DNA from: a phage
NCBI GenBank assembly: GCA_012646185.1
Contig: GCA_012646185.1_4706.1
Strand: one strand, 5' to 3'
DNA length: 64,000 nt
Shown: positions 30,609-54,011 of the stretch, in pieces
Layout: each line of letters begins with the position of its first letter
Numbering within the stretch: position 1 is the stretch's first letter
Translations under genes and position numbers: made by a program
The notes under the pieces: model-generated
Told to the model about the DNA's origin: nothing
Seen by the model: only the letters and a program-made list of their open reading frames with translations
The model's database searches: none

Positions 30609-33600
30609 TTACTTGTAGGCACCGCAATGGGCTTTGATGAGGAAAAGCACCGCTTGCATCGGTTTATTGAACTGTTGCCATAACGTCAATGCCGGATGGA
30701 ACAACCAATCTTCCAGACCAAGAACGATACCGTAGTTAACGACATTATTAACATCGTTCTCAACGTTGAGTTCGCTATCCAGGAATTTATCGATTGAACG
30801 CAGGGTCTGCATGGCGTTGTCAGCAATAAGCCAAGCTTCATGTGCTTCACGAGCCGCACGCAGCACTGCCTCCAGTTCGCTGATAGTAGCTACCGGTAAT
30901 TCCTCACTGGTGAGGTCGTCAGAAACCGTAAACTGGCGATTGATACCGGTGTAGATCCACTGCATCAGTTTCGCTGCTTCCTCGTTCGGGTTGTTACGCG
31001 TTGTCGCATAAGTCGCGCTCACCTTCACGATATGCGTTTCACCAAGATACGCTTTGGAACCAACACCTTTACGATCGCTGTCTTTCCACGGTTGTACGGT
31101 AGCGACCATGAGCTTATCCCATTTCTGAATAGGAATACGCTTCAGACCAACAACCGATCCAGCGGATGTTTCGGACTGGTTGCTCTTCCGCACGTCGCTG
31201 AGCTCACGATCGATAGCAACGATTAATTCACGCGTCATGTTACCAAGCATTTTGATTTCACCCAACGCAGCGATGAGCTTCTTCACGTCAGTAACAGGTT
31301 CACCACCGATGGTAAGATGACGGATGAAACGTTTCAGAATAATCCGTTCTGCTGCTGGGTTACCACGACGCGCTTTAGCCAACGCTTGCTGTGTTTCGGC
31401 GAACAGCTTATCCCATGGAGCCGTAGCGGCGGTATAGTAACGATGGTTGGTTTCGATCCAGTTACCGATACGGTTGACCGCGCTCTTAACGGTATCCATG
31501 AATCCTTCCATCGCAATTTCGGTAGCTTCGACGTTACCCTGGAAGTTATCAGGACCGATTTCGCGTGCCGCTACCAGAATACCTTCCACCGCACTCACCG
31601 CATGACGACCGATAGCCAGATTTCGCTGTGCTTCTTCAGCACGCTCAACGAATTCCACTACCGCAGGATCGTCAACGATTTCCGCCTCGGCAACAGCACG
31701 CGTACCCGCATCACCTTCCAGCGTTTCGATAGTGACAACCGGATCGTTTTCACCGGCAACATCCTGATACTCTTCCTGTTTGAGATCGCCGTTATCAGCC
31801 GCTGCGACAGCGGTGAGTATACGGACGGTAACATCACCGAGTTCTTTTGCAGCGAATCCGTAAACGGTGCATGCTGTTTTTGCAAAGTTCATTAGAATGC
31901 GTGTACGTTTAACGATGTAACCAACGCCGTAGTCACTACCGCTATTATCGATGTCACGGATTAACTGCTCAGCCGTTTCTTGAAGGATAGATACTGACTT
32001 CAAGAGATCGTCTTCAAACAGTTTCTTCGACACCTCAACCAACATATCAGCATTGATGTTGGGTGGGGTTTTGTCGCCCTGTTGTTTCATCTCGCTTAAT
32101 TCATCGCGGAACTTACTGATTCCATCCAAAGCGGCACTGGCGGTATGTCCGAACGCGGCAACTCCTGGCATTGTTGTTGCTGACAACATATCCGAATCGG
32201 CGTTTGGACTTTCGCCTTCTTTAAGATCCTTCAGCTGGTCGAAGAACTTGCGAGATGCTTCAGCGATACGTTTGCTGTCTTTCACCGCGTTTACGATTTT
32301 ATCGACGGATTTAGCGTCGTTTGCAAGCAGCGTATCGAGTTTGTTCCATTCGACACCGACTTTCGTCGCATCCTTAGTATCGCTTGGCGGAGGAAGCAGT
32401 TTTGTCACCGGAGTCGTGCGTTGTTCTTTGGTCAGCTTGTTGGCCTTCTCTTCGATTTTTTTCTTGTTAACACCAAAGAGATTTTTCAAACGCGCCACGA
32501 GGGCTTTTAAGAACTTCGCGACCGCTTCGTAAACCGATTTCAGAATCTGTTTAAAGCGACCCGGCTGCTTTTCCCCGTCTTCCAGATTGAGATCGCTGTT
32601 CAGTGCGACATCAAGCTGTTTGTACGATTCCATGATGTATTCGTCTTTGATTTCAGGACGAATCTCGAAGCTTTCCATCGGACCTTCAGCCGGACGGAAT
32701 TCCATTTTCAGTTCGCCTTGCAGGGTAGGGTCGACAATAGCGATAGCTTCACCCTGACCATCAGCGTTAAAGCGTTCAGCGTAACGAGTACGGCGAACAA
32801 TAACGCTCTTATCCCCATCAAGACGACGCACCACCATGGTGCCAGGAATGTACGGTTGTTCTGTTTCAATGACGGTTACATCTGTTTCACCCTCACCGAG
32901 AATAACAGATGCACGCTGTTCGACAACAGGAACATCTAATACACCACGGGCTTCCAGCTCTTGATGGATTTCGAACGACTCTTGTTTCAGATCTTCATCT
33001 TCTTCGTTTTCGTCGTCTTCATCATCGTCACCTTTGGTGTTTTCATCATCCTTGGTGGTTGTGTCGTCGGTGGCACCAGCGTCAGCGTCGGTGTTAGCAG
33101 GTTCTTCGGACGCAGGTTCGGTGGTGTTGTCCTCCGTGGACGACCCGTCAGTGTTATCGACATCAACATCACCTTGCAGTTCTGTTTCCTGAGCAACTGC
33201 TTCGGCTTTCTGCTCGCCGGTATTACCATCATTAGCGTCGACAACAGGTTGTTCGTCAGCGACGGTATCTTCAACCTTTTCTACTTTCTCCACGACACGT
33301 TTAATCACGGTGACTTTGATGGGTTCTTCCGTTGTTTTGGTTTCTGACGTCACCTCGGCTGCCGCAGCCGCTGTTTCAGCAACAGGTTCTGCTTTTTCCG
33401 GTTCGACGACATTACCTTTAACACCTTCGGTGGTTTCTGCAGGTTGCGCTGCCTGTTCGATTTGCGCCGGATTGGTTGGATCGATGGCGTTAGCCGCATC
33501 CTGAATCTTGTTCTTCAGGTTGTCGCGGTCAGCGTTAACGGTCGGGTCGTTGGTCACTTTCGGTGCCGGTGTTTCGGTCGGTGCGTTTGCCGGATACGGG

Positions 33601-33995: not shown

Positions 33996-34010
33996 AAAGC
34001 GTTATTCCTC

Positions 34011-35117
34011 TTAAAAGTAATATTTCAGCGCCTCGCGAGAGACATCAAGCATAGCCGCTGTTGAATTCGTAAAGAACTCGGCATAGCCCACAAGCGGCAC
34101 CTTGATCCACGCGGTATACGCTGTAAGGTATCGAGAAAGGGCTACCATAGCATCATCAGAAGCAGTAGTAACTGACAACTGACCTTGTTGACGATAAACG
34201 TCGTTAAGTTTTGCTTGTAGATTCCCTGCGATTTCGAGTAACTCGTTGGCGTACTTTTTGCGATGGTAACTAACCAGTAAATCAACACCCGTATTTACCG
34301 ACTCGAGTAGCACACCAACTTGTTCTAATGTTGGCATTGTAACCACCATATCCCGTTCAACGGACGGTACATCCTGGACTTCAAACCGTGCGGATTGAAT
34401 GGCGAGGGACTGTTGAATTGAACCAGAACCTGAGGCGGTAACCTGATCGAGTCGTAGCGTACGGTTACCCAGTAACGTTACGTTGACGAGTCTCGATTCG
34501 TTCAGCGTACTGTAGACTTTGTGCAATAACGTATACGCGTCACGGTTAATCACATCGATTAATGCGGTATCCGTCTGTTTTAAGATAATGTCGAGCGCTC
34601 TATCTAACGTATTAGCGAACTGCTTGAAATCATCACGGAACGACGAAGACAAGAGATATTCAGCGATTGCCAAATTCTGTTTGTATAACGTATTCCCAGT
34701 TGTGAAGTCGAATCCAAAACTGTTCCCATACCGTAGGTGCGGTGCCAGCGTTGACGAAGCTTCGAAGCTTTGCGCGATGGGTTTACGACCAACGGCTTTT
34801 GTGTAGTGACGGCGGATGTTGCTGAGTTCGAGCTGTAGTGCACGACTACGATCGATAAACCGGGCGATAAAAGCAGTGATGTTCCGCAACGTTGTCCAGA
34901 TCGCATCGATGATGGCTTTGATGATTTTCATCGCAAGCTGATTGTACGATTCCATCGTGAGGAGATCAGCACTTTCTGTGGTATAACCGGTTGCCGGAAT
35001 ACCGCCTGCTTGCTGATAAATAAGCTGGTGAATTTGTCGTTGCGTTGCTGTCTCTGGCACAGGTAATGTTTTTAACAAGCTTAACGCTTGAATCTGTCCG
35101 TCATAGGTCTGCAGCAT
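34011..35117 (-). CDS. hypothetical protein, paralog family B (possible head internal protein); start uncertain (35117 or 35159)
   Basis: ATG at 35115-35117 has GAGGAAA ribosome-binding site; the track ATG at 35159 lacks one and overlaps the upstream gene by 59 nt. Confidence 0.7.
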   Translation of the reverse strand: MLQTYDGQIQALSLLKTLPVPETATQRQIHQLIYQQAGGIPATGYTTESADLLTMESYNQLAMKIIKAIIDAIWTTLRNITAFIARFIDRSRALQLELSNIRRHYTKAVGRKPIAQSFEASSTLAPHLRYGNSFGFDFTTGNTLYKQNLAIAEYLLSSSFRDDFKQFANTLDRALDIILKQTDTALIDVINRDAYTLLHKVYSTLNESRLVNVTLLGNRTLRLDQVTASGSGSIQQSLAIQSARFEVQDVPSVERDMVVTMPTLEQVGVLLESVNTGVDLLVSYHRKKYANELLEIAGNLQAKLNDVYRQQGQLSVTTASDDAMVALSRYLTAYTAWIKVPLVGYAEFFTNSTAAMLDVSREALKYYF

Positions 35118-36402
35118 TGCTGGTTTCCTCAAGTTCGAGATGCGCGTCAAGATAATCATTAAGACCGTCGATGACGTCGCAGACAGTTAACAGGAATCGG
35201 GCAAAAGCAACCGCTTGGAAACCGACGACGTTACGCGCGATACCCACACGTTGAACGATAGCGGATGCGGTGGTATCGTCGTTGTCCATCTGTTGTAGCA
35301 AACGCTCGTAAGGTTGAATCCATTCGTCCTGGTCGGCAAGGCTTGCTTCAAGACAACGTTTAAATTCCAACTGGCGTAGCGTAGACCATAACGTACTTAA
35401 TGCGTTGATGATCGCGTTGGTTCCGTCGATAACGTCGTTTAACGGTAAGAAACGGAATCCGTCTTTTGCTGATTGGAAAGATACGGCTTCCCACACAACG
35501 CTGAATTGCGTTCCTGTTGCGTCTTCGATGTTGTGTACTTTAAGATAGGAAGCACCAACAGGTACGTCAACGACCAGATCGTCTGTTCCGGTAGGCGTTA
35601 ACGGCTTCTCGCATAACGCCTCGTTAATGACCTCGAGGATATTCTCCCAACAGGCTTCGTTTTCTGCAGCGATACCTTCTTTGTTATCCGCAGATGGTGC
35701 TTTTAGTAGCTGCATTAATAACGGATCGAGTTGACGATGCCATGCTGCGAGGATTCCTGTGTTCGTCACGATGTTTTCTGCGGTTTGTCGTAAATCAGCA
35801 ATACTGCTTACGGCACCACCTTTCGGATGAAGATATCGCCAGTTGTAGGGAAAGTTCTCCCAGAATGCGTTATCTTCATTAACATCGTATTCGGAAATAG
35901 TTTTCAACGCAGCCGCTTTCTTTAATAACGGCTTCACCTGACGAACGAATCGACGATAACAACGATTGCAGATATCGATCGCGTAGCGGTATAACTCGTT
36001 CATGTAAAGCCATAACGCTCGGGTTGCTTCTTTTGCGGTCTTGTCAAAACTTTCCATGTTCAAGCTCATCCCGCTGGAAGTTTCCTCTTCCAGACCATCG
36101 ATGATGTGGTTTGGGTCCATTCCCATTCCGGCTGCTGCGGTTGTTGCGATATGTTTGATGGTGCTGATATCGCGTTCCTCGACTGCAGCCATGTTTGGGA
36201 CAATATCCAGCCTGAGTTTATTTAATGTTTGAAGGTGTTGTTCACCTTCTTTCATCATCGTGTTTGTTTCGTCGATTGAGTGAAACTGATTCTCAATATT
36301 ACTGGCATCGAGAATGTTGCCAGCGATACCGAACGATTCTACAGGTTCATCATCAATCCCTTGAAACAACGATGTCATGGGTTGTTGTAACACGTTTTCC
36401 AT
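35101..36402 (-). CDS. hypothetical protein, paralog family B (433 aa)
   Basis: ATG at 36400-36402 with GGAG ribosome-binding site. Confidence 0.85.
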   Translation of the reverse strand: MENVLQQPMTSLFQGIDDEPVESFGIAGNILDASNIENQFHSIDETNTMMKEGEQHLQTLNKLRLDIVPNMAAVEERDISTIKHIATTAAAGMGMDPNHIIDGLEEETSSGMSLNMESFDKTAKEATRALWLYMNELYRYAIDICNRCYRRFVRQVKPLLKKAAALKTISEYDVNEDNAFWENFPYNWRYLHPKGGAVSSIADLRQTAENIVTNTGILAAWHRQLDPLLMQLLKAPSADNKEGIAAENEACWENILEVINEALCEKPLTPTGTDDLVVDVPVGASYLKVHNIEDATGTQFSVVWEAVSFQSAKDGFRFLPLNDVIDGTNAIINALSTLWSTLRQLEFKRCLEASLADQDEWIQPYERLLQQMDNDDTTASAIVQRVGIARNVVGFQAVAFARFLLTVCDVIDGLNDYLDAHLELEETSNAADL

Positions 36403-36509
36403 TTGGGACTCCTACGTAGGAAAATCTTGGCGGGTGATCATGTCCGCCATTTACCTTCTGAACCGTTGATTCAGAAGTCAAAAGATAACCGGATACCAAC
36501 GTCATAAAA

Positions 36510-36541
36510 CCTTCCTCCAACCCAACAGGGAAGGAGGAAGG
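36510..36541 (-). terminator. conserved terminator hairpin
   Basis: CCTTCCTCC-AA-CCC-AACA-GGG-AA-GGAGGAAGG. Confidence 0.7.
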
Positions 36542-36551
36542 GATATAGTGG

Positions 36552-37841
36552 TTATGCTTTTTCGGTTACAGCGTCGAAGTATTTCGCTGCAGCAAATACA
36601 GCATCTGCATATTGACGGTTAGCAACACGGAGGATCTTAGCTGCTAATACCGCGCTCAAGCGCGCCATTTCAGAAATGGCGCTTATATAAGGACGAACGG
36701 TTTCACGATCTGCTTCCGGTAGATTGTCGAGCATACCGTCCCATTTAGTTTTAATTTTCATGCCGTTGAGTTTAGCAGTACGTTCGACAGTACTTGTTAA
36801 ACTTTCTGTCTGGTGAAAATACACGGGGTCAACAACACGAAACGCGTTAAGATACGAAGTCAGTGCGGCTTTCAATTCGTCGTCGTTATTGAAAATGTTC
36901 GCGTTTTCAATACTACCGGTCGCGGTTTCTTCAACTTCGATCTGAATATTCTTCACGAGCGCGCAGGCCTTAATGGTATCTTTCTCAGCCATAAGAGCGT
37001 CAAGACCTTTAACAACATATCGTTTCCCACCACTTTCTGGTATTTTGAGTCCTTTTAACGCAGGCTTGATGGCGTAAATATAATCGTCCAGAATATCGGC
37101 AAGTGTCGTCAAATCGGTTAGTTTATTAACTTTCTTGTTAATGTCGTCAGTTTGGAGTAGTAAAAAAGTGGATGCTTGTGTGGATGCCGCTAACTGCTCA
37201 ATATGTTTACGAATCTCCAACGCGTTAACCGTTTTTGCGTTAGGGAACATGCTAATCATATTCCCGGTCGGTTTATTTAGTTGTTTGATGTGACGCTCGC
37301 CTTTATTTACAGCGGTTGCAACATCGGTAATTTTTTTATACGCTACCGCAAGGTTTTTGAAAAGCAGCTGAATCAGCTTACATAACTGTTCAGCCATGTT
37401 CGCAATGATTACCCAGACTGCGTATAACGCTTGTGCTGCGCGTTCTTTAAAGCCTTCCAGTACAATAGCTTGCCCTTCCACCAAACGATCGTCGGCTTGG
37501 AACATGTCTTCATCAGACATCCCCAGGTTAGCCGCTGACGTCGAAGCAATCTGACGGATAAGGGCGACGTCACTAGCACGTGCTTCCGTGATCGTTGGTG
37601 CGATCATGTACGCGGTATCTTCCAGCGTTGCTGAGGTACGCACCGCGATTTCAGCCAGTTCGCTGGATTCATCGATTGTCTCGTCGGTACGTCGAATCAC
37701 CAACTCAACTTCGTCCTCTTCGATTTCCGCGTTAGGATCATTTTGCTCCGTCGGAATTGCCGCAAGAAGATCTTCGGCGCTGAGCAATGCGAGTTCGAAT
37801 GCGTTTTTATTGACGTTATCAAAAAGAGAGATGCGGGCCAT
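36552..37841 (-). CDS. hypothetical protein, paralog family B (429 aa)
   Basis: ATG at 37839-37841; N-terminus MARISLFDN resembles the other paralogs. Confidence 0.85.
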   Translation of the reverse strand: MARISLFDNVNKNAFELALLSAEDLLAAIPTEQNDPNAEIEEDEVELVIRRTDETIDESSELAEIAVRTSATLEDTAYMIAPTITEARASDVALIRQIASTSAANLGMSDEDMFQADDRLVEGQAIVLEGFKERAAQALYAVWVIIANMAEQLCKLIQLLFKNLAVAYKKITDVATAVNKGERHIKQLNKPTGNMISMFPNAKTVNALEIRKHIEQLAASTQASTFLLLQTDDINKKVNKLTDLTTLADILDDYIYAIKPALKGLKIPESGGKRYVVKGLDALMAEKDTIKACALVKNIQIEVEETATGSIENANIFNNDDELKAALTSYLNAFRVVDPVYFHQTESLTSTVERTAKLNGMKIKTKWDGMLDNLPEADRETVRPYISAISEMARLSAVLAAKILRVANRQYADAVFAAAKYFDAVTEKA

Positions 37842-37850
37842 GTTAGTTCC

Positions 37851-39167
37851 TTAACCTTTTGTATAAGCTTTAACGAGAGTGTTGATAAATGAGGTCAATG
37901 CACGAAGATATTGGTAAGCGAATTGGTTTTCAATACGGTTCTCTTTACCGCAAAGCAGAATCGCACGCTTAACGAGCTTAGGATAGATCTCAACGTACGG
38001 TTGGTAGCTCGCATCAAAATTCTGCTCGTTGAAGCGTTTCATGGTGATTTCCTGGATGCGCTCCATGGTGCGAATTTTATTACGAGAGAAGATCTCAGAG
38101 AAAGCGCGTCCGCGTTTTGTTACCATCAACAGATCTTTCGCGAACGTCAGTTGTCGAACGCTACGCAAATCGTCAGGTGTCGGCAGGACGTACGTTTCCG
38201 GATCACTATCCCATTCAACATCTTCAACGACAATATCCAAGTCGAGGTAACGTTTAACCGCATCGATGATATTGTCTTTTGACGCATCGAATTCTTTCAA
38301 GAAGACTGCGCCGTTGATGTAACGAATGCGTTTTCCGGAAACCGTTGGGGTGATAACGTCAGTACCTTCCACGGAACCGCGATTTTCCAGCGTCGATTTG
38401 ACAGCGTTCAAGAAAGTCAGATAATCAACGGGAAGTTTTTCAACCTTATCTAAATGGAAGTCGATGATGTTTAACCCCAACCCATCAATAACTGAATAAC
38501 CGTCCGATTTAAGGAACATCTGATTGAAGGTATCGATGTTGCTTTTCAGCGCGTCTACACCACCAACGTTGTTACGGTTAGGGAAAAGTGTCCGCCACTC
38601 CGCTTTAAATGCAACTTCTTTATTTTCCTCGTATTTGCCTTTAGGCATTTGTTCGAGGGCTGCAACGGCTTTCTGAAAATTGCGCGTCTCGTCGTAAACA
38701 AGACGGGTAAGCTTCTCGAAGGCTGCTGCCAGGGTCAGGGCAATATCAACAATGATATCCCAGATCTTTTTCATGGCTTTTACAACGGTGTCCTTAAACC
38801 CTTCAACAACCAAAGCTTCTCCAACCTCAACACGATCGGTTGGCGTCAGCAATGCTTCGGAGGGTAGACCCAGAGCAATCGATGCGGATTCTTGCACGTT
38901 ACGAACCAACGCAACATCACTGTAGTTAGCCGATTCGATAGTCGGAGCAACATCAAAACTGATTTCCCGTAATGCAGCAACAGCAGGGAAAGCACGATCA
39001 AGTGCATCTTCATGTTCGTCGATTGTCGCCAAACGTAATTCAACGCCATCGGCATCGATGACATCGGCTGTAGGCTCCACAGCAAGCGCCTCAGCAACAA
39101 TAGGATCTTTTTCAAACGCCTCAAGGCTGATATCGCCTTGGGTCGCAAATAGCGGTATGTGTACCAT
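37851..39167 (-). CDS. hypothetical protein, paralog family B (~438 aa), start moved to ATG at 39165-39167
   Basis: Track start TTG at 39191; ATG at 39167 has GGAG ribosome-binding site 7 nt upstream; N-terminus MVHIPLFATQ fits the family M-x-x-I-x-LF pattern. Confidence 0.8.
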   Translation of the reverse strand: MVHIPLFATQGDISLEAFEKDPIVAEALAVEPTADVIDADGVELRLATIDEHEDALDRAFPAVAALREISFDVAPTIESANYSDVALVRNVQESASIALGLPSEALLTPTDRVEVGEALVVEGFKDTVVKAMKKIWDIIVDIALTLAAAFEKLTRLVYDETRNFQKAVAALEQMPKGKYEENKEVAFKAEWRTLFPNRNNVGGVDALKSNIDTFNQMFLKSDGYSVIDGLGLNIIDFHLDKVEKLPVDYLTFLNAVKSTLENRGSVEGTDVITPTVSGKRIRYINGAVFLKEFDASKDNIIDAVKRYLDLDIVVEDVEWDSDPETYVLPTPDDLRSVRQLTFAKDLLMVTKRGRAFSEIFSRNKIRTMERIQEITMKRFNEQNFDASYQPYVEIYPKLVKRAILLCGKENRIENQFAYQYLRALTSFINTLVKAYTKG

Positions 39168-39215
39168 GTGTTGTCTCCAGTAATGATTCAAAAGATAAAC
39201 CTGAGCGGCATAGAA

Positions 39216-39247
39216 CCCTCTCCCAACCCGTTAGGGAAGGGAGAGGG
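39216..39247 (-). terminator. conserved terminator hairpin
   Basis: CCCTCTCCC-AA-CCC-GTTA-GGG-AA-GGGAGAGGG. Confidence 0.7.
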
Positions 39248-39269
39248 GATATGTCAGTTTATTAACTGA

Positions 39270-40592
39270 TTACTGCTGTGCTGCGTCAGCCGGTTTCTCA
39301 GCCGCCTGGCCGCCGTACTCTTTCAGCATTTTAGCAACGCCATCCAGGACAGCGTTACCTGCCTGAACACCGTATTTCATCAGACCGGTCTGCGGGTTCA
39401 CATAGCAGGAACGTGCGTCTTTCAGCGCAGACAGTACAGCTTGAACACGCTGTTTTTCCTGAGCGGAAACTTCGCCTTTCTTAGACAGATCGGCTTCCAT
39501 ATCGTCACCGAATTTAACAGCGTCTTTGAAGCCCTGGGATTTCTTACCGATGTTGCCTTTCAGCGCCAGCAGTTTGTCAGCCAGTGCTTCAACACCGCTA
39601 ACCGCAGCAGCCAGCTGGTTCAGGGACAGGACGGTAGCTTCAACTTCTTTTGCTTCGCCGGAGCGTTCCCAGGTTACTTTACCATCATTGGCTTTGAAAC
39701 CCCAACCTGCCGGGCCAGCAACGTCAGCAATCGCCGGAGCGTTCAGTTTATCAGCGTACTCGGTGTGAGACTTAGCAATAACGGTACCAACGAATTTATC
39801 AGCACGATCGTCAGCAGCCTTCATTGCTTTCTCGAAGGTGTCGGCGATTTTGGTCGCGCTGGTAACCAGATCGTCGCCACCGGTGTAGCCTGAAACACCG
39901 CTACCCAGTTTAACTTTGGTATTTTTAGCAGTGCCTTTACGCTTGGCGATCATTTCTTTCAGTTTAGCAGCACGCGCTTTCAGTTTGGTCGCGCCGTCGA
40001 AGATGCGATCCATGAACTTCACGAAGGTTTCCCAGGAAGTCTTCAGGAAGTTCTTGATGGTTGCCCACAGTTTCTGCCACCATTTTTGTTCTTCCAGGAA
40101 GATCATGTTGGTTGCATCGTAGCGGGAAGCGGAACCACCGAAGCTTTCGAAGGACGGCATGGTTTCCGGCATTTTGAAACCGATAGTACCACACAGACGT
40201 TTCAGATTACGCATGTGTTCCTGAGCGGTCTGTGCAGACATACCACCGTCTTTCAGGTAGCTTTCGGTTGCAACAACGGTTTCCGTCAGTTCATCCATGG
40301 CATCATCCATGGCTTCTGCGGTTTCGTCGTCTTTTGCAATTTCGATAACAACAGAATCAACCTGCTCGATATCACCACGAACTTCGATAGCCAGTTCGGT
40401 TTCAGCTGCGGTATCTTCAGCGATTTCAGCACGTTCGGTCAGTTCAGCCACAACGTTTTCATCCGCTGCTGCAGCATCAGCTGCCGGTTCTGCTTCAACG
40501 GTTGCCGCTGCATCCGGATCGATCTCAGCAGCCAGTTGAACCAGCTGTGCGTTAGATGGATTTGCGACAAGACGATCAAAAATAGAAGGCAT
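39270..40592 (-). CDS. hypothetical protein, paralog family B (440 aa), Ala-rich, strong codon bias
   Basis: ATG at 40590-40592 with AAAGGAAA ribosome-binding site; codon usage resembles highly expressed host genes. Confidence 0.85.
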   Translation of the reverse strand: MPSIFDRLVANPSNAQLVQLAAEIDPDAAATVEAEPAADAAAADENVVAELTERAEIAEDTAAETELAIEVRGDIEQVDSVVIEIAKDDETAEAMDDAMDELTETVVATESYLKDGGMSAQTAQEHMRNLKRLCGTIGFKMPETMPSFESFGGSASRYDATNMIFLEEQKWWQKLWATIKNFLKTSWETFVKFMDRIFDGATKLKARAAKLKEMIAKRKGTAKNTKVKLGSGVSGYTGGDDLVTSATKIADTFEKAMKAADDRADKFVGTVIAKSHTEYADKLNAPAIADVAGPAGWGFKANDGKVTWERSGEAKEVEATVLSLNQLAAAVSGVEALADKLLALKGNIGKKSQGFKDAVKFGDDMEADLSKKGEVSAQEKQRVQAVLSALKDARSCYVNPQTGLMKYGVQAGNAVLDGVAKMLKEYGGQAAEKPADAAQQ

Positions 40593-40656: not shown

Positions 40657-41187
40657 TTAAAAGCCCTTAAAACCCGGTGCCATAGGTTGCCCAAACACCG
40701 CATTCAAAGTACATATGATGTCCTGGATGCCATTGTCCCAATGGAGCCAAGTACGCACCATCTCTTCGTCTGACAACGTGATATAACTCATAAGTTTACC
40801 GCTGCTTTCCAGACGTTGGTGTGAACTTAACGACTGACGATCTGACCAGTTATCAATCAATTGTCCAGCAATCTGTACGTTCGTGTCTCGTCTACCCGTA
40901 TGAATAAACCGTAGCGTATCACGGATAAACTCCAGACTGGTGAAGTTCAGATTTGGGTTATGGCTGTTCATTTCCACCCAATCGGTGATGGGGTACATCA
41001 AACGATAAAGGGTAGAAAGAACCTGACGTTCATATTTCCAGTCATCGAGAGGAGTACCATCGACCAGACGCTGATACAAACTAACAACGTCGCGATCGTA
41101 GTTCTCCTGGCGTTTTACACCGTTAACCGGAAATCCGAAGAACCCGGTACCGTATAACGTTAAAGGGACGTCACGAAGTGCATTCAT
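40657..41187 (-). CDS. hypothetical protein (176 aa)
   Basis: ATG at 41185-41187 overlapping the upstream TGA. Confidence 0.8.
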   Translation of the reverse strand: MNALRDVPLTLYGTGFFGFPVNGVKRQENYDRDVVSLYQRLVDGTPLDDWKYERQVLSTLYRLMYPITDWVEMNSHNPNLNFTSLEFIRDTLRFIHTGRRDTNVQIAGQLIDNWSDRQSLSSHQRLESSGKLMSYITLSDEEMVRTWLHWDNGIQDIICTLNAVFGQPMAPGFKGF

Positions 41188-42086: not shown

Positions 42087-42125
42087 GAGTGAGCACCTAT
42101 GCTATTTCGAAACAGGTTACGTGTA

Positions 42126-47531: not shown

Positions 47532-50500
47532 TTATCTTACGTTATTGCTGTTCTGCTGTTCGCTGAACCAACCGTACACCTTGAGATCGGTACCGTATTT
47601 CAATGCGATATACGCATTCAGTGCGGCACAGAACAAAGACGCGAATGCCCATATCAGCGAAGGATCAACATCTTCCGTTACCACCGGGAGAGTATTATCC
47701 GGTTCCCATGATGGAGAACTGTCCATGAACGTCGTGACCATTACTCGCCGTTGTTCTTCGGTGGTAAAGTCGCTATGAGGTTCCAACGCTTCTTTTGCCA
47801 GACGTCGATATTCGAACATATGCGTTGCTAAAGCCGATGAGTTACCAGATTCGCCTTCATAGTTCGGATCCACCGCATAACAGAGTTCTGTTGAATCTAA
47901 CAAAGCAACCGCCTGTGTGATGCTGTCGGCAGTGCCTGCACCATAGAGTTCGATAGACCGCGAAAGCTTCTCACAGAACGCATCCAACGCGGCAGGATTG
48001 GACACCTGAAGGTCAAGGCCTAATGTCCACGGATAGTTACTGAATACACCCGTAAACCGCGGCATAACACCCAACAGATGTTGTCCGATTACAGCACGGT
48101 TATAAACAGCCCGGTTATAGACTTGAAACGCAGCCTCCAAAGCTTGGTTATAATGACGACGAAGTTCGTCACGAGAGTTGCGGAACCTGTTTGCCGCAAG
48201 ACTCGTGGCTGCGACGCTACAAACATCGTAATTGGTGGACGAGAGCACAGTTTCGTTAAGATCGAACGCTTCCTGTTTCAACGATCCGCTAACCGCTGCT
48301 GCTTCGCTGTTTGCTTTATCGACAACAGTACTCAAAGCGTTGATGTAACGTTTAGCTCGGACTTCCAGCCATTGTGCGATGCCGAGAACATCCACAGCGG
48401 CTTTAGCAAGGTCACGCGCGTTCACGATTTCGTTCTTCAAGGCACCCAACCCTTTATTCTCAGGCGAAGAGGCTTGTTGACGAATCATGCTGTTTAACAT
48501 GGTAAGCAGATTATCCAACTCGTGCCCACTGACCTTGTTACGCGCATCGGTAATCGGCCCTTGCAGGAATTTACGGCAACCATCGTTGTATCGAATCAGT
48601 TTATCCACATCGATAGATTCGTTCGTGGATTCCTTGAACTGATCCTTCAATTCTTCACGGTAGTCATGGATTTCACTTGCGAGATTATCGATAGTGATAC
48701 CATCATGTCCAAGAAGAACTTTATTGAAGTTACCTTTCTCGAATGCCAGAGCAAGACCTTCACGAATCTTAGCGAGTTTATCCTGATCAAGTTCACGACC
48801 GTTCGATAGCTCTTTCACTTCCGAGCTGATTAATGCCGAAACGTTACCCAGATTGTCGGTAACCCCTTTGAACGCTCCCGACCAGATCGTTCCTGCTTCA
48901 GCGTATTTCGCAATGGTCTGAATACCGACGGTGTGCAGCGACGCTAAACGTTTCTTCGTGCCTTCGGTAAGCAGAGCGTCTTTAGCTCGCGTAAGCTGGC
49001 TGTTATTAGCTTCCGCCTGCTGAATCGCTGCTTTCGCACTTCCATTACGCCAGCTCTTAACCAGCCAATCAACCAAACGTTTTAGGATGTTGACGGTATA
49101 TTCCATCGTCCGCCGTAACGTTTCCCACGCGCTTTCTGCGGTATAGATGCCGTACCCTTCCATCTTCAACGCTTTCAAGCTTGTTTGACGTGCCAGCCAT
49201 TCTACCGTTGCGGAACAAACGTTTACAAAGGCTTCCAGGTAGGTGTAATAGACGTCTGTTGCCGACGTTTCGTTGAACTTTGAATGCAGATAGAACTGAT
49301 CGTAAAGTTCGTCGTCATCGCCGAAGGCATCATAGTTCCACAGTTCTGTATCACAACCTGTACCGCAGAAGACGTCAGCTGTCGTAAACTCTTTAAGCGC
49401 TTTAGCTGCATCATTCGTCAGGAATTTACCCGTTTCGACTACATCGTCGACATTAAGCTTGGGGAGTTCGTCGGTGACTGGCTCTTCCAACATCAGCATA
49501 TTGAAGAATGTGCTGTACTTGTATCCGAGCCATTTTGGATAACTGCTTTCAGGGATCGTAGACAACGGCTTGATTTTCTTGGCTTCAGCCAATGTGTCTT
49601 TTGCGACCTGATATTGGTTTTCCCCAGCCTTGACGCGACGTAATGCTTTTTCTTCCAACTGCTTAAGCTTGGCATGGCGTGCTTGTGCTGGAGCTTCAAC
49701 AAGTTTTTGTACTGACCGCATTGCAGAAATCGCTTCTTTTAATACGATCATCGGCATACGAACTTTGCCGTCGTCGAAACTAAGAGCGCGAGCGACACGT
49801 TTACTTACGACAGGCTTATCATGGATATTTCGTTCCACCCATGATTTGTTTGCGTAAGTTTGAGCGATCTGCTGTTGGATATTTTCAAGGTATTTCCAGC
49901 CGTTGGAAGCTTTGTTATCCAGAAGCGGATTCGGTCCCTTCTTATCGAAAAGTTTCAGAATCGGACCAAAGAAACCTTCCTGTACGAGTTCGATACGCGT
50001 GTATCCGTCAGCCGCTTCGATTTCTTCTTGGGTTTTGTCCCAGAGCTGTTCACTACGGACAGCAGTAGCTGTTTCAGATACCGACATAACAAGCTCGGCA
50101 ACAACTTCAGCACAGGTCAGTACGGTACGCACGCATTGCACTAGCATACGCTGGTAAACGATACGTGCGTTTTGTAGACGTGCGATAACCGCTAAATAAC
50201 CGATATTGTCAAGACGTTCGTCGGCTTGAGCAGAGTCGACACGTTCTATCAGTTGTTTAACCAGCGCGGCTGTTTCCGGATAATCGTTCACGACGTCACG
50301 CATAATTCGTGATGCGAAAACCGCGGTACCTAAAACGTTAAGAAGTGTTTTACCGTCCCATTCTTTTGGTGTCGCTACCGATTCGGTAGGGATGAGATTT
50401 CCCGCTTGATCGAAGTATGGCATAAGGACATTGATATCCGTAGACGGTACTGCGGTGATTGCGTTGTACTCTTCATCCGCACCATCGTTGCCAGACGGCT

Positions 50501-51137
50501 GTAATGCAAGTGCTTGTTCAAGGATTTTGCGGTCAACAGCATAAAGCGCCGACAGAGCCTGTGTTACCGCAACCAGATCAACGATCGGCGACCAGAGCTG
50601 TGCGAGCTTACCTTCGTATTTCTGTACAGCGATAGCAAGGTCTTCTTTTACGTCAGGATGATTGATTAAACCACCCAGCGCTTCATGGATTGCAGAAAAA
50701 CGTTCAGAATGTGCTTGAGTTAATGCAACAAAATCGTCAACGTACGATGCATTTTCTTCAAGGCGTGCAAGTTCCTGCTCCAGAAGATCTTTTACTTGCG
50801 TGGCGGATGCGTTTCTCAGCTGTTCCCCGATAATCGCGATGGCTTTATCGACAACACGACAAGCTTCATTGAAGCCTGTCGTTGAAGGTAACTCGGTCCA
50901 TAATGCCAGCGGCTTACCTTCCATTGCGTCAGGAAGGGAATATGACAACATTGCTAGTTGTTGACGTGATACCTGTTTGTCACGATGTAACGTTTCTTTC
51001 AACGCCAGAAGCTCATCAAGACCCACACTGCTAGGGATCGTGGGATGTGATACGGCGTTGATATTTTCTGTCAATGACTCAAGAACCAATAAACCATTTT
51101 CAGCGGAAGATAACCCTGCTTTAAGGTATTTGTTCAT
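47532..51137 (-). CDS. giant protein (1201 aa); shares ELVQEGF-type motif with the 930-aa and family B proteins
   Basis: ATG at 51135-51137 with ACGGAG ribosome-binding site. Confidence 0.85.
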   Translation of the reverse strand: MNKYLKAGLSSAENGLLVLESLTENINAVSHPTIPSSVGLDELLALKETLHRDKQVSRQQLAMLSYSLPDAMEGKPLALWTELPSTTGFNEACRVVDKAIAIIGEQLRNASATQVKDLLEQELARLEENASYVDDFVALTQAHSERFSAIHEALGGLINHPDVKEDLAIAVQKYEGKLAQLWSPIVDLVAVTQALSALYAVDRKILEQALALQPSGNDGADEEYNAITAVPSTDINVLMPYFDQAGNLIPTESVATPKEWDGKTLLNVLGTAVFASRIMRDVVNDYPETAALVKQLIERVDSAQADERLDNIGYLAVIARLQNARIVYQRMLVQCVRTVLTCAEVVAELVMSVSETATAVRSEQLWDKTQEEIEAADGYTRIELVQEGFFGPILKLFDKKGPNPLLDNKASNGWKYLENIQQQIAQTYANKSWVERNIHDKPVVSKRVARALSFDDGKVRMPMIVLKEAISAMRSVQKLVEAPAQARHAKLKQLEEKALRRVKAGENQYQVAKDTLAEAKKIKPLSTIPESSYPKWLGYKYSTFFNMLMLEEPVTDELPKLNVDDVVETGKFLTNDAAKALKEFTTADVFCGTGCDTELWNYDAFGDDDELYDQFYLHSKFNETSATDVYYTYLEAFVNVCSATVEWLARQTSLKALKMEGYGIYTAESAWETLRRTMEYTVNILKRLVDWLVKSWRNGSAKAAIQQAEANNSQLTRAKDALLTEGTKKRLASLHTVGIQTIAKYAEAGTIWSGAFKGVTDNLGNVSALISSEVKELSNGRELDQDKLAKIREGLALAFEKGNFNKVLLGHDGITIDNLASEIHDYREELKDQFKESTNESIDVDKLIRYNDGCRKFLQGPITDARNKVSGHELDNLLTMLNSMIRQQASSPENKGLGALKNEIVNARDLAKAAVDVLGIAQWLEVRAKRYINALSTVVDKANSEAAAVSGSLKQEAFDLNETVLSSTNYDVCSVAATSLAANRFRNSRDELRRHYNQALEAAFQVYNRAVYNRAVIGQHLLGVMPRFTGVFSNYPWTLGLDLQVSNPAALDAFCEKLSRSIELYGAGTADSITQAVALLDSTELCYAVDPNYEGESGNSSALATHMFEYRRLAKEALEPHSDFTTEEQRRVMVTTFMDSSPSWEPDNTLPVVTEDVDPSLIWAFASLFCAALNAYIALKYGTDLKVYGWFSEQQNSNNVR

Positions 51138-51152
51138 AAAACACTCCGTTGA

Positions 51153-51183
51153 CCTAGGTGGAGGCCAATAACCTCCACCTAGG
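51153..51183 (-). terminator. distinct near-perfect hairpin CCTAGGTGGAGG-ccaataa-CCTCCACCTAGG
   Basis: 12-bp stem between the stop of the 930-aa gene and the start of the 1201-aa gene; terminator, attenuator or processing site. Confidence 0.5.
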
Positions 51184-51218
51184 GTTGAACAACGCGTACG
51201 GTTATACGGTACGCACGA

Positions 51219-54011
51219 TTACGCTAATTTACCGAAACCGGCCTTCTGTAGTTTCTCGTTGATCAGTTTTGCTTCAGCGAAAACATAATCACGATACGCA
51301 GTGACTAATCCGTCCACCCGTGAACGCAAGGCTTCTTCGAAGCTATACCACGCAGCGATTTCACGAATCTGTGCGTTGATATAATCAACGGTTGAGCGAA
51401 GCTCGGTTGCGTTTTCTTGCGGAATGGCTTTCACCTGGCGAGCAACGTCATTTAAACGACGGAACTGTGTTTCGATTTCTTTAAACTTACTGTCAGCAAG
51501 TTTGCTGAATTCGTCACCGGAACGGGTAAATAACAGATAGCTGTTGCCGTCAAGTGCGGTCGCTAACTGCTGAAGTACGTTGGTGTCCGGATACACAGGA
51601 GTACCGCTTTGCAATACTTTCTCACCGAATTCCGCGAAGTCCTTCGGCGGTAAGTGTGCAGACGTTGTCAATTCGTTGAAACGGAAAGTCAGCGAACTAT
51701 CATACAACATCCGGTACGCTTCCATACCCTGTTTCATGGTACCGGCCAGGTTAGCCAGACGCGGAGCAATCTCGCCTTCTTTAGCGCGTTTCTGGTCTTC
51801 TAACGCCCCTTCGAGTTCTTTACACTGGTCGTTCAGATACACGATACGATCGGGACGCAGACGACGCATCTCACGAAGAATGGTATCCAGCTTACCTTCC
51901 TGGAAATAACCTAACGTTAAAGACGTACACGCTTGCTGAAGACGATCGAAGACCGGTAAGGTTACCATCTCCTTACGGATACCATCAACAATCGCAGAAA
52001 CAGCCGAAAGTTTCTGTTCTGTAGTCAATGGAACATCAGAGGCCGACTTGCTGGGCGCACCAACAACGTTACGCATTGCGTCGGTATCCTCGGTTTTATC
52101 AACCTCTTTACGAACATGCTCATCAGGAACATAAACGTTAGCATTACGTTTCGCCTGCTTGATAGCATCGCTGGCCGCTTTTTCGGTGGCCGCTACGCTA
52201 TCGGCACGTTTCTTCAAGAGTTCAATAATCCAGAGCACCAGACGACGAATCGCAGTGTAGGCTGTCGTGATGATGACGCCGATAACAGCCATCTTCATGA
52301 TACCGAACGATTCCATGGTCGGCTCTAACGCTTGGTCTGGCATATACCGTTCACGCAGTTCCAGATAGATCTGCTCATCTGGTTTGCTGACCTCACCACG
52401 ATGCGAAGTACGATAGATGGCTTCGTCAATCTCAACAAGATCTTTGCGGGCCTGGCGATCGGATTCTGTTAAGTAAGCACAACCGGATACATCATCTTCG
52501 AAGCTTAAGAATTTGAAAAAGTCACTGACGTCGATCTTGATCTTCTTCGCTTCATTGTCAACGTTAATGAAATCCGTTTTACGAGACTGCTGTTGAATCT
52601 TAATATCCTTTATCGGTTTAAGCGCTTTGTCTTTTAATGCCTGCATGATCTGTTTCCAGCTGGCATCGCGTTCAAGAACAAGGAAATAGTTCTTGAGTTC
52701 GAATGCGCGATAGCGGACAACAAGTTGTTCTACCTGGACATGAGCGAGTTGTACGTCCATCAGCCAACGCGACAGCGCAGAAACCAAACGGCTATACGCA
52801 AGCAGCGTCTGGTACGTCAGCTTCATGTGTTTCTCGTAGAGCTCAATGTCTCCGCCCTGGATGTCGGCTGTCGGGTTCATTTCCTTCGTTGCTTTGAAGA
52901 CTTGTTCGGCTTCATTCAGCATTTGCTCAAACTTGACTTCATTGAACGCGTTGAATGGTTCGGCCAGTTCGTTCATCCGATCGTGTAGTTCGCGAACCCA
53001 AGCTTCTTTGTGATTACGAATGACCGCATCAGCGTGGAGTTCGGTTTGATGTTTCTGTACCCATTCTTCAATGATATCCGCAGCTGCAACAACACCTGTG
53101 TTGTCAGAAATCAATGGGATGACGTTAGAGAGCGTACCCGCACATGCTGGCGTTTTCCAATGATCATTAAGTGTGTTGCGGAACGTAATGATGTCCGTCA
53201 TTGACGTAGTGATATCGAGGAACGTGTTACCGTTACGACTCATGCTTGTGATGTTTGTGGCAAACGTCTTTTGTTGTTCTACAACGAATGGAATCAACGC
53301 CATCAACCAATCAGCAATACACTGTGCTTTTTCTTTCAGGTTTTTGTCGGCGATTTCTTTGAGATTAATTGCGCCGCCGTACCCCGCAAGTTCGTTATAC
53401 ACATCGTTCAAGGTCATCTGCGCATCAAGCATTTCTTTGAAACGCGGATAATCTTCCCCTAACGCATCGATGATATCCTGGATAACGTCGTCGGTTGTAG
53501 CGATAAATTTCTTCGTGTCGACTTTAGATTTCCAGATTATTTTCACCGCTTCTTTCATAACGGTGAACATGATCTGCCAAATACGCTTAATAAGTTCCCA
53601 GACTTTCTTCGCACCATCGACAAACAGTTTAGAGATCTTGGCAACGAATCCTTCCTGCACTAACTCAACGCCGTTACGTGATGGGATTTCCGTGAAGAAA
53701 GCATCCGGCAGTTGTTTCGGGAATGCGTCACCAAGACGCATACGCAGTTCCGGTACATCAGCACGAGAAATACCGCGTGTTACTAATTGTTCGTGAAGAC
53801 GAACGTTTTCTTCACCAGCAGCCACGAATTCATTAACGTCGAAGGAGACCATTGCTTCCTGATCTTCGGTGGTAACAACGCTTGAACCGTCGCTGGTTTG
53901 GATGTCTTCGTCAGGGAACGCCATGAGCATACCGTGACGCATTTCAACCACTCCGTAATCGGTTGCTAAACCGAATTCGTTGTGGTCGGGAGTAATAACT
54001 GGGATACTCAT
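51219..54011 (-). CDS. large protein (930 aa)
   Basis: ATG at 54009-54011 overlapping the upstream TGA; contains VELVQEGFVAKISKLF. Confidence 0.85.
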   Translation of the reverse strand: MSIPVITPDHNEFGLATDYGVVEMRHGMLMAFPDEDIQTSDGSSVVTTEDQEAMVSFDVNEFVAAGEENVRLHEQLVTRGISRADVPELRMRLGDAFPKQLPDAFFTEIPSRNGVELVQEGFVAKISKLFVDGAKKVWELIKRIWQIMFTVMKEAVKIIWKSKVDTKKFIATTDDVIQDIIDALGEDYPRFKEMLDAQMTLNDVYNELAGYGGAINLKEIADKNLKEKAQCIADWLMALIPFVVEQQKTFATNITSMSRNGNTFLDITTSMTDIITFRNTLNDHWKTPACAGTLSNVIPLISDNTGVVAAADIIEEWVQKHQTELHADAVIRNHKEAWVRELHDRMNELAEPFNAFNEVKFEQMLNEAEQVFKATKEMNPTADIQGGDIELYEKHMKLTYQTLLAYSRLVSALSRWLMDVQLAHVQVEQLVVRYRAFELKNYFLVLERDASWKQIMQALKDKALKPIKDIKIQQQSRKTDFINVDNEAKKIKIDVSDFFKFLSFEDDVSGCAYLTESDRQARKDLVEIDEAIYRTSHRGEVSKPDEQIYLELRERYMPDQALEPTMESFGIMKMAVIGVIITTAYTAIRRLVLWIIELLKKRADSVAATEKAASDAIKQAKRNANVYVPDEHVRKEVDKTEDTDAMRNVVGAPSKSASDVPLTTEQKLSAVSAIVDGIRKEMVTLPVFDRLQQACTSLTLGYFQEGKLDTILREMRRLRPDRIVYLNDQCKELEGALEDQKRAKEGEIAPRLANLAGTMKQGMEAYRMLYDSSLTFRFNELTTSAHLPPKDFAEFGEKVLQSGTPVYPDTNVLQQLATALDGNSYLLFTRSGDEFSKLADSKFKEIETQFRRLNDVARQVKAIPQENATELRSTVDYINAQIREIAAWYSFEEALRSRVDGLVTAYRDYVFAEAKLINEKLQKAGFGKLA

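Follow-up and report, generated by a model that had tools for sequence, protein, structure and literature searches.

A run of genes on the minus strand of the 64,000-nucleotide stretch of phage DNA analysed here (the window) raises the question of whether five tandem mid-sized proteins and three giant ones near them belong to one family carried inside the head, and how such proteins would be processed and delivered. The locus is a module of genes for cargo carried inside the head, and it belongs to a Goslar-type chimallivirus, one of the nucleus-forming jumbo phages. Escherichia phage Goslar is a close relative of the source phage at 96% nucleotide identity, and both the gene cluster and the family are already known, having been described earlier for Goslar and phiKZ. 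The outcome for this locus itself is mainly confirmatory; the new detail is a 273-aa cassette in one of the giants, which lies exactly between two sites of a motif shared across the locus.

Gene content of the locus

An earlier note on this DNA had listed eight genes, and all eight (8/8 ORFs) were found where it had placed them, on the minus strand. The array consists of the homologs of four minor PF12699 paralogs, gp54 (34011-35117), gp55 (35101-36402, 433 aa), gp56 (36552-37841, 429 aa) and gp57 (37851-39167), and of the major PF12699 internal head (ejection) protein gp58 (39270-40592, 440 aa, 97.5% identical to Goslar gp58); the array proteins are 95-98% identical to their Goslar counterparts. 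The ORFs of gp54 and gp57 extend to 35159 (382 aa) and 39191 (446 aa), respectively; the internal ATGs at 35117 (368 aa) and 39167 (438 aa, MVHIPLF...) are probably the true starts, as in the Goslar annotation, and have better ribosome-binding sites. The three giants are the homologs of gp53 (30609-33995, 1128 aa, 94.9% identical to Goslar gp53), which occupies the site of phiKZ gp97, of gp64 (47532-51137, 1201 aa), a three-module virion protein, and of gp65 (51219-54011, 930 aa), a vertex-binding-complex protein of the inner capsid surface.

Between the array on one side and baseplate genes on the other lie three co-oriented head genes on the same strand, the homologs of gp59, gp60 and gp61 (40657-43232). 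These are non-PF12699 proteins and match phiKZ gp91, gp90 and gp89 (phmmer E 7e-14, 5e-15 and 6e-36, respectively). In Goslar, packaging and injection apply to gp60 and gp61, whereas gp59 has been modelled in the vertex complex (bioRxiv 10.64898/2026.04.21.720040).

Paralogy of the five tandem genes

The five tandem genes are genuine, strongly diverged paralogs of the PF12699 (phiKZ_IP) family. Their paralogy, claimed in the earlier note, is only partly visible in pairwise comparison: BLASTP and phmmer link three of the five directly (BLASTP, 36552 with 37851, E 1e-17; 35101 with 37851, 2e-9; 35101 with 36552, 1e-6), whereas the remaining two join via profiles. Iterative HMMs seeded at either end of the family connect all five, gp56 being reached at E 1e-6 from a gp58 seed. 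Measured against the curated PF12699 gathering score of 27 bits, gp58 passes with 68.3 bits, gp57 and gp54 fall below it with 23.7 bits and 22.1 bits (profile positions 89-384), respectively, and the PF12699 HMM scan gives no match for gp55 or gp56; PHROGs returns weak "internal head protein" matches only. A non-circular reference for hhalign was built from 21 PF12699 proteins of phiKZ, PS119XW, SPN3US, PhiEaH1, RAY and Xoo-sp14. Against it, probabilities were 98.4% for gp58 (E 5e-15), 97.4% for gp54 (E 1e-11), 95.8% for gp55 (E 7e-9), 91.8% for gp56 (E 7e-7, 370 columns) and 69% for gp57 (E 4e-5), with neighbouring genes as controls staying below 1%. The low-copy paralogs persist as separate orthologs in a relative at only 25-45% identity, suggesting that the copies differ in role.

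Two short signatures had also been proposed for the array. The M-x-x-I-x-LF start is exact only in MARISLF and MVHIPLF and partial in two other proteins. The central LVEGF motif fared better, being shared and enriched, albeit with the true form x-x-E-[GS]-[FY]: the eight proteins hold 15 copies vs 2.5 expected, a number reached in 0 of 5000 shuffles, and the other 37 proteins of the window hold 10 vs 8.1 expected. In the form hydrophobic-x-E↓G/S-F/Y (the arrow marking the predicted cut), it often continues as xxΦxKLF. The motif is kept in the 25-45% identical relative and is invariant across the gp58 family.

The host-like codon bias noticed in the gene at 39270 is real. Its effective number of codons (ENC) is 30.2, with 30.1 in the major capsid gene and 41-59 in every other gene, and E. 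coli optimal codons make up a fraction of 0.81 in it vs a median of 0.52. Gp58 is the bulk species, with codon usage tuned to very high expression, and the other paralogs are low-copy variants. Its AF2 model shows disorder over residues 1-87, followed by a helical bundle with a small sheet. A Foldseek search of this model against the PDB gave nothing with E <0.1; the best weak matches, to TolC and to pore formers of the ClyA/AhlB/SmhB type (probability <=0.18), were kept as a lead only.

The shared motif as a predicted prohead-protease site

Prohead-protease cleavage sites have been mapped in SPN3US gp53 and gp54 and in phiKZ gp86 (PMC10052503, PMC5694885). In alignments, the motif column coincides with E125 of SPN3US gp53, E137/E124 of SPN3US gp54 and SQE-122 of phiKZ gp86, and because of this agreement with experimentally mapped sites xxE-[G/S]-[F/Y] is predicted to be, most likely, the maturation cleavage site of the prohead protease. 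The predicted sites, all on the minus strand and each checked by translation, lie at 34944-34952 in gp54, 36046-36054 in gp55, 37449-37457 in gp56, 38796-38804 in gp57 (E130-G-F), 40140-40148 and 40257-40265 in gp58, 31500-31508 in gp53, 49971-49979 and 49152-49160 in gp64, and 53646-53654 and 52305-52313 in gp65. Charge flips at the motif, from pI ~4.1 before it to 8.4-9.3 after it; in gp58, residues 1-110 have a net charge of -27 and residues 166-440 a pI of 9.3. The predicted mature part of gp55 is acidic, in which the other paralogs differ.

The three giant proteins

The relatedness of the giants to the array, also proposed earlier, holds for the C-terminal domain of gp53 and fails for gp64 and gp65 as far as family HMMs can tell. 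Gp53 is the sole demonstrable PF12699 family member among the three. Its N-terminal part is long and acidic and is followed by a middle part and, at the C-terminus, by a PF12699-like domain (30612-31532, minus strand; residues ~822-1128) that begins at the fourth motif, EIAME↓GFMDTV, and has a pI of 8.5 behind an acidic upstream part. Scanned alone, the C-terminal 671 aa score 22.2 bits against PF12699 (E 9e-5; cutoff 27), and hhalign gives the C-terminus 85-91% (E 1e-6 to 6e-6), the value against the 21 PF12699 members being 91% (E 1e-6). A BLASTP comparison of gp53 with itself found no internal repeats.

The 930-aa gp65 belongs to the vertex binding complex; it is homologous to phiKZ gp86, carries an additional domain and is only distantly related to the array. 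It matches the "gp65" of PDB entries 11fg and 11mk end to end (1759 bits, 84% identity), and Goslar gp65 has been assigned to the vertex binding complex (bioRxiv 10.64898/2026.04.21.720040). The gp65 chain of the cryoEM composite model 36za begins 14 residues past ELVQE↓GF, and the segment of gp65 that varies against Goslar opens right at this first motif.

Gp64 is built from an N-module (49977-51137, 48% identical to Goslar gp64), the in-frame 273-aa cassette (49158-49976) and a C-module (47535-49157, 98% identical to Goslar gp64), all on the minus strand. The cassette has ELVQE↓GFF at its upstream and KME↓GY at its downstream boundary and is absent from Goslar, whose gp64 has 930 aa, is present at ~110 copies per virion and has been placed in no virion substructure (bioRxiv 10.64898/2026.04.21.720040). 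Short gp64 alleles join as LVQE↓GFFDPTKME↓GY or, cleanly, as LVQE↓GYGIY; the indel junctions of gp64 and the start of the variable segment of gp65 coincide exactly with the motif. In Klebsiella phage Eowyn a homolog of the cassette stands alone as a protein of 306 aa, and another forms the C-terminal module of gp151 in pEa_SNUABM_54, behind a nucleoside-deoxyribosyltransferase-like domain, and in both the module is flanked by xxE↓[GS] sites. A homolog search with the cassette alone returned nothing, though long gp64 forms contain it. A PF12699 assignment of the cassette was rejected, as the profile match (18.8%) was unconvincing.

These boundaries allow a tentative generalization, which we regard as possible rather than probable: in Goslar-like phages, head-internal proteins may be assembled from cargo modules in series, each flanked by a prohead-protease site and exchangeable on its own. 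A module would be gained, lost or swapped in frame with its neighbours left intact and would be released in the capsid as a polypeptide of its own for delivery to the host, the gp64 cassette being one such plug-in cargo.

How gp64 and gp65 relate to the family can be read in a second way, to which we give about one chance in three: they may be head proteins unrelated to the family, having in common with it no more than a short linear signal made up of the protease site and the beginning of the next helix, a signal shared because one protease handles all head-internal proteins. Very lax thresholds did not bring either of them among the matches of the family HMM, the iterative HMMs and PF12699 scans of their segments miss both, and gp64 has no Pfam matches, whole or by segment. 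Their hhalign probabilities against the 21 PF12699 members are 8-11% (gp64 10.7%, gp65 7.6%), and a larger profile aligns the motif and first helix only (31-62 columns). A search of the gp64 C-module against 1.84 billion representative proteins found relatives only within the Goslar lineage, and the 1201-aa protein has no solved relative. A Foldseek search of the gp64 AF2 model against BFVD matched genes of other chimalliviruses at the gp86 position and in the internal-protein array with probability ~1.0, the output leaving the aligned portion of gp64 unindicated. As the model is of low confidence (pLDDT 48), these matches are suggestive only, and at the level of a predicted fold they suggest a weak similarity of gp64 to the family.

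Virion content and proposed processing

The earlier note had likened the array to the internal-head or ejection proteins of phiKZ-like phages and named absence from virions as a finding that would speak against it. The likeness is borne out by the PF12699 membership of gp58 and by synteny with phiKZ gp92-gp97. All six proteins gp53 to gp58, described in Goslar as PF12699 members, are contained in purified Goslar virions, at ~2150 copies per virion for gp58, ~330 for gp53, ~70 for gp54, ~50 for gp55, ~60 for gp56 and ~50 for gp57, and Goslar gp58 enters the host by injection (bioRxiv 10.64898/2026.04.21.720040). The "inner body" half of the description did not hold for Goslar, in which no inner-body density was seen in micrographs, C1 maps or symmetry-expanded maps (bioRxiv 10.64898/2026.04.21.720040); "ejection protein" is therefore the better name.

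The same data bear on the idea that the array is chiefly structural, an inner-body spool organising the packed genome, with ejection incidental and the paralogs interchangeable filler. An inner body has been reported in phiKZ and attributed to these proteins, their total mass is high given the copy number of gp58, and the mature domains are basic; moreover, phiKZ gp93 is found in the pellet together with DNA, and several of the paralogs can be lost one at a time (PMC12676376). However, inner-body density is absent from recent phiKZ maps as well as from those of Goslar (bioRxiv 10.64898/2026.04.21.720040), injected paralogs co-localise with the early-infection vesicle and travel with the nucleus, and the low-copy paralogs are kept as distinct orthologs in the distant relative mentioned above. 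A mainly structural role is thus considered unlikely, at roughly one chance in four, and delivery to the host is the preferred reading.

Processing by a protease, likewise proposed earlier, is indirectly supported by the position of the motif on mapped sites and, for gp58 and gp65, by the available part of the Goslar peptide-area table, which is ordered alphabetically and covers peptides up to "ELK", semi-tryptic peptides starting with G or S lying outside its range. Within this part, gp58 peptides 55-72 and 115-128 have areas of ~5e3 and 1.7e4, the whole protein reaching 1.08e7, gp65 peptide 83-91 has an area of 451 against a total of 8.7e5, and the capsid-protein control shows the same depletion (~3e3 vs 5.7e5); peptides N-terminal to the motif are depleted 25- to 400-fold in the three proteins. 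Two Goslar gp53 peptides in the same part of the table, EIRPEIKDEYIMESYK (area ~2.8e4) and EIGPDNFQGNVEATEIAMEGFMDTVK (area 541), run uncut across two copies of the motif, and the N-terminal peptides of Goslar gp53 and gp64 listed there are at ordinary levels; some motif copies are accordingly not cut, or their fragments are retained. It is improbable, at about one chance in eight, that the motif is instead a structural element (e.g. a docking peptide) which opens the first long helix and stays uncut, with full-length chains in the capsid: the gp53 peptides, a propeptide peptide of Goslar gp55 listed in the same part of the table, and ELVQLSY at the start of the ordered capsid-protein model (residue 158; Leu, not Glu, before Ser) would fit such an element, but three cleavage sites mapped by experiment in homologs line up with the motif Glu, the upstream depletion in the listed peptides is strong, and the gp58 propeptide is predicted to be disordered and highly acidic.

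Proposed mechanism and significance

Taken as a whole, the scheme of PF12699 precursors, comprising the products of the five tandem genes and gp53 with its C-terminal domain, that are matured by a protease, packaged and ejected with the genome is held with high confidence. The precursors would be made late, each beginning with a short leader at the N-terminus and having a strongly acidic propeptide (~70-165 residues). The propeptide would carry the precursor into the procapsid, where it would probably dock on the inner capsid or the vertex complex. The prohead protease would then cut after Glu in hydrophobic-x-E↓(G/S)(F/Y), releasing a helical, mostly basic domain of ~300 aa that would stay with the packaged DNA and be ejected with the genome into the host, where phiKZ relatives associate with the early-infection vesicle. 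Gp64 and gp65 would use the same site motif, on which their module boundaries lie. Actual cleavage at these residues in this phage, anchoring by the propeptide and the function after ejection are the parts of this scheme that we infer.

The array proteins make up most of the material that enters the cell alongside the DNA of a nucleus-forming jumbo phage, and how they contribute to the building or operation of the early-infection vesicle is recognised in the field as an open question. The cut positions show which fragments to tag, express or delete. If exchangeable, protease-bounded modules are the rule, this would explain the variation in copy number and length of the family between phages and would open a way to load the heads of jumbo phages with foreign proteins.

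Comparison with known systems

The gene order of the locus is that of phiKZ gp84-gp98, with significant phmmer matches for gp84, gp87, gp88, gp89, gp90, gp91 and gp98, and is also found in PS119XW, SPN3US, PhiEaH1, RAY, Xoo-sp14 and the metagenomic relative L010. Like phiKZ gp92-gp97, the array lies between the homologs of gp91/gp90/gp89 and of gp98, and both sets comprise six genes of which the last is a giant (816 aa for phiKZ gp97, 1128 aa here); phmmer and BLASTP in pairwise use failed to link any of the eight proteins with its counterpart in phiKZ. Phage phiKZ gp92-gp97, gp162 and gp163 share with the proteins described here the PF12699 domain, an N-terminal leader and propeptide with protease sites (predicted here), and packaging and injection (here from the Goslar data). 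In phiKZ, the N-termini are wedged in the capsid and the head protease frees the C-termini, which are then injected (PMC12676376). The two systems differ in that one paralog dominates here (~2150 copies vs 50-330 in Goslar), whereas phiKZ has several at ~100-200, and in that G/S-F/Y follows the predicted cut and P3 is often V, T, N or I, unlike S-x-E↓D/E/A in phiKZ; the P3 residues reported for SPN3US and phiKZ are A, or S/A/G, a mismatch that counts against the proposed scheme. A connection to Avs5 was dropped, as the Avs5 paper names another phage trigger.

SPN3US gp53 and gp54, the paralog family A ejection proteins, are likewise PF12699 proteins and very abundant, and propeptides of ~125-137 aa are removed from them by the prohead protease gp245 at AQE↓GW and ARE↓SL (PMC10052503, PMC5694885). 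Both sites align exactly with the motif described here. Unlike the present locus, SPN3US has two paralogs only, in roughly equal amounts, and no giant in the array.

Gp65 resembles phiKZ gp86, SPN3US gp47 and Goslar gp65, which are vertex-binding-complex or essential head proteins, in its position beside the baseplate genes, and the SQE-122 cut of phiKZ gp86 shares an alignment column with ELVQE↓GF of gp65. It is ~2x as long as phiKZ gp86, its second domain being preceded by a second motif copy. Gp64, next to gp65, is without a counterpart in phiKZ, although a pair of genes is likewise present here in RAY and PhiEaH1.

The internal proteins IPI-III and Alt of T4 carry a capsid-targeting leader that is cut after Glu by gp21, and the cargo is ejected with the DNA. 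The resemblance to the proteins of this locus is one of analogy, not homology: in both cases an N-terminal leader takes cargo into the prohead and is removed after Glu (by prediction in the present phage), whereas sequence and fold are unrelated, and the propeptides here are far longer and acidic, with some chains built from multiple modules.

Phage identity and gene models

Over the five-gene array (34011-40592), the DNA matches that of Escherichia phage vB_EcoM_Goslar, a jumbo phage that forms a nucleus, at 96.3% identity, and gene order makes the window collinear with Goslar gp38-gp73. All eight open reading frames lie where the earlier note had placed them: five tandem genes at 34011, 35101, 36552, 37851 and 39270, named here after their Goslar homologs gp54-gp58, and three giants, gp53 (1128 aa, 30609-33995), gp64 (1201 aa, 47532-51137) and gp65 (930 aa, 51219-54011). 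Protein identity to Goslar is 95-98% for gp53-gp58 and 84% for gp65, and is mosaic along gp64. Two of the five tandem genes probably start at internal ATGs (35117 and 39167), as an RBS precedes each and Goslar is annotated likewise. Dozens of ~230-247 kb contigs deposited with isolate assemblies of Escherichia coli, Salmonella enterica and Shigella flexneri also carry genes of this set, which suggests that phages of the Goslar type often travel along in the enterobacterial cultures that get sequenced. At 56014-58743 (+), Goslar annotation gives a 499-aa DNA polymerase B exonuclease-domain fragment directly followed by a 378-aa NUMOD1/HNH homing-endonuclease gene, which looks like a split polymerase beside a mobile endonuclease.

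The strong host-like codon bias noticed earlier in the 39270 gene was borne out, with an effective codon number of 30.2 compared to 30.1 for the major capsid gene and 41-59 for every other window gene. E. coli-preferred codons make up 81% of this gene and 84% of the major capsid gene, the median being 52%. A 766-aa open frame antisense to the entire major capsid gene (18839-21139, +) is most likely a by-product of the extreme codon bias of that gene, not a gene.

Virion presence and paralogy

The head location proposed in the earlier note agrees with mass spectrometry of near-identical Goslar, in whose virions all of gp53-gp58 were detected, at ~330 (gp53), ~70 (gp54), ~50 (gp55), ~60 (gp56), ~50 (gp57) and ~2150 (gp58) copies; gp64 is present at ~110 copies, gp65 belongs to the vertex complex, gp58 is injected according to earlier work cited there, and no inner body was seen in Goslar (bioRxiv 10.64898/2026.04.21.720040).

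Pairwise BLASTP connects only three of the five tandem genes (35101, 36552 and 37851), with E values of 1e-6 to 1e-17 and matches confined to 90-220 residues at the N-terminus. In Pfam, the 39270 gene matches PF12699, the phiKZ-like phage internal head proteins, at 68.3 bits (cutoff 27), and the 37851 and 34011 genes match below threshold. Iterative HMMs seeded with gp58, gp55 or gp57 were run on an ORF database from syntenic regions of phiKZ, PS119XW, SPN3US, PhiEaH1, RAY and Xoo-sp14, and each recovered the other window paralogs together with the known internal head proteins. In a non-circular profile-profile comparison with 21 members from other phages only, probabilities were 98.4 (gp58), 97.4 (gp54), 95.8 (gp55), 91.8 (gp56) and 69% (gp57), with control neighbours gp60, gp61 and gp63 below 1%. 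Since both approaches link them, the five tandem genes are, as judged by these profiles, true and very diverged paralogs, as had been claimed. A distant Goslar-lineage relative (ENA ERZ926030, a 179.7 kb metagenome contig; gp58 45% identical) has just four small paralogs, alongside a giant of 1380 aa and a gp64-like protein of 976 aa, with motif sites kept.

The gp58 model, searched against the PDB with Foldseek, best matches TolC and the alpha-pore-forming toxins ClyA/AhlB/SmhB, all non-significantly, the likeness consisting of long helical bundles and a small beta tongue. The destination of these proteins, a lipid vesicle, raises the idea of a membrane-active role, but the evidence at hand falls short of supporting it.

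Relationship of the giant proteins

The giants had been proposed as relatives of the array, which stands for gp53 and is graded for the others: one clear relative, one probable distant relative and one uncertain. When scanned alone, the C-terminal 671 residues of gp53 give a sub-threshold PF12699 match over residues ~810-1062, and hhalign gives 85-91% probability (E ~1e-6) over residues ~822-1128; gp53 thus belongs to the PF12699 family and is extended far at its N-terminus, like phiKZ gp97, which occupies the same genomic position. For gp64, no Pfam match, solved relative or sequence relative beyond its own lineage was found. Its AF2 model is poor (pLDDT 48), and the best Foldseek matches of this poor model (probability near 1) are ~400-aa virion proteins of other chimalliviruses, among them the products of the gp86-position genes of PS119XW and RAY, as well as one giant protein encoded in the internal-protein array of PS119XW; hhalign of the gp64 C-module against the gp86 family and PF12699 reaches only 11-15%, over 255-262 columns from the cleavage-site column. 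In PhiEaH1 (locus L005, 20979-23384) and RAY (locus L006, 20951-23683), the interval from the gp87 homolog to the gp85 homolog holds two genes, of which the second is a paralog of the gp86-like one (hhalign 89%), an arrangement that parallels the gp64/gp65 pair.

The shared motif as a putative prohead-protease site

The LVEGF/ELVQEGF signal widens to x-x-E-[GS]-[FY], with 15 occurrences across the eight proteins (2.5 expected; 0 of 5000 shuffles reach 15) and 10 across the other 37 window proteins (8.1 expected). When the family is aligned, the Glu of the gp54-gp57 motif shares a column with SPN3US gp53 E125 (AAQE/GW, the slash marking the mapped or putative cut), SPN3US gp54 E137 (VARE/SL) and phiKZ gp86 ISQE/A, and the upstream gp58 site, SFE/SFGG, aligns with SPN3US gp54 E124; all four SPN3US and phiKZ sites are experimentally mapped prohead-protease cuts (PMC10052503, PMC5694885). 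The motif is conserved in a metagenomic relative just 25-45% identical, and S147, E149, S150, F151 and G152 are invariant in gp58 homologs down to 28% identity. The sequence ahead of the motif is highly acidic (net charge -16 to -27, pI ~4.1); the domains that follow it tend to be basic (pI 8.4-9.3), except in gp55. The N-terminal leaders (MARISLF.., MVHIPLF..ISLE/A and MKKSLADLMRKSHLNLE/S) resemble that of phiKZ gp93, which is cut at SLE-13 (PMC5694885). The major capsid protein (18914-21136, -) has ELVQLSY at residues 153-159, close to the gp64/gp65 ELVQEGF and exactly at the start of the Goslar cryoEM model (S158), with a putative G-C-E/S site 8 residues upstream.

Goslar peptide areas, taken from peptides sorting alphabetically from A to 'ELK', indicate graded cleavage. 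In the capsid-protein control, the area is ~3e3 for a propeptide peptide and 5.7e5 for one from the mature part. Motif cleavage is likely in gp58, whose peptides 55-72 and 115-128 reach ~5e3 and ~1.7e4 vs a protein total of 1.08e7 (87 peptides), levels so low as to suggest E149 or E165 as the main cut, not E110. It is likewise likely in gp65, where peptide 83-91 has an area of 451 vs 8.7e5 over 44 peptides, and the composite-model chain starts 14 residues past the motif. For gp54-gp57, cleavage is plausible. Uniform cutting is opposed by gp53 peptides that cross two motif copies uncut, the first at ordinary intensity (~2.8e4), the second only as a trace (541), and by ordinary peptide levels from the N-terminal parts of gp53 and gp64; in these two giants, cleavage would be partial, or the fragments retained.

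Possible modular organization

Within gp64, the last 541 residues are 98% identical to Goslar and the first 387 (N-module, 49977-51137) only 48%. Between them lies an in-frame cassette of 273 aa (49158-49976), set between ELVQE/GFF and KME/GY and thus flanked on both sides by xxE/G[FY] sites; it holds a conserved GxGCDxxxW motif and is missing altogether from Goslar gp64, which reads LVQE/GFFDPTKME/GY. Long (1194-1205 aa) and short gp64 alleles are both present in public assemblies, one short type (928 aa) having a clean join, LVQE/GYGIY, and the N-module falls into three allele classes. Klebsiella phage Eowyn has a stand-alone cassette homolog (locus L009, 3950-4870) with the leader MSRIRLHTYVQSSVSME/GLVDTLKKLF and a C-terminal ..SVE/S site. 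In Erwinia phage pEa_SNUABM_54, the homolog is the last module of gp151 (locus L008, 2417-4834), whose N-terminal domain resembles nucleoside 2-deoxyribosyltransferases (PF15891, 35.9 bits) and precedes SVSQE/GLLSWLGKLF. This 805-aa protein joins the PF15891 domain through xxE/G sites to two cassette-like modules, and is a possible case of an enzyme shipped in the capsid. In gp65, the segment varying from Goslar (residues ~121-520, 52450-53651; 47-85% identical, background 95-99%) has its start precisely on the first motif. The edges of modules thus fall on putative protease sites, a pattern that fits, but does not prove, head-internal proteins being chains of separately released cargo modules. 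Both hypervariable segments (49977-51137 and 52450-53651) border the motif, which suggests that head-internal proteins are subject to recombination or diversifying selection.

Proposed mechanism and comparison with known systems

As the family, synteny, virion presence and paralogy are published for Goslar itself, the finding is already known for the near-identical phage of the window. Two modest additions, both still in need of confirmation, would be the interpretation of the motif as a cleavage site and the gp64 cassette with its flanking putative protease sites, for which the literature searchable here gave no description. In the proposed scheme, the leader and acidic propeptide would target precursors into the procapsid, the motif would be the point at which the prohead protease cuts them, and the DNA would be accompanied on ejection by the mature PF12699 domains. 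Events reported for phiKZ match this scheme of targeting, cutting and ejection; several of its paralogs are individually dispensable (PMC12676376), and the phiKZ paralogs co-localise with the early-infection vesicle (bioRxiv 10.1101/2024.03.24.586471).
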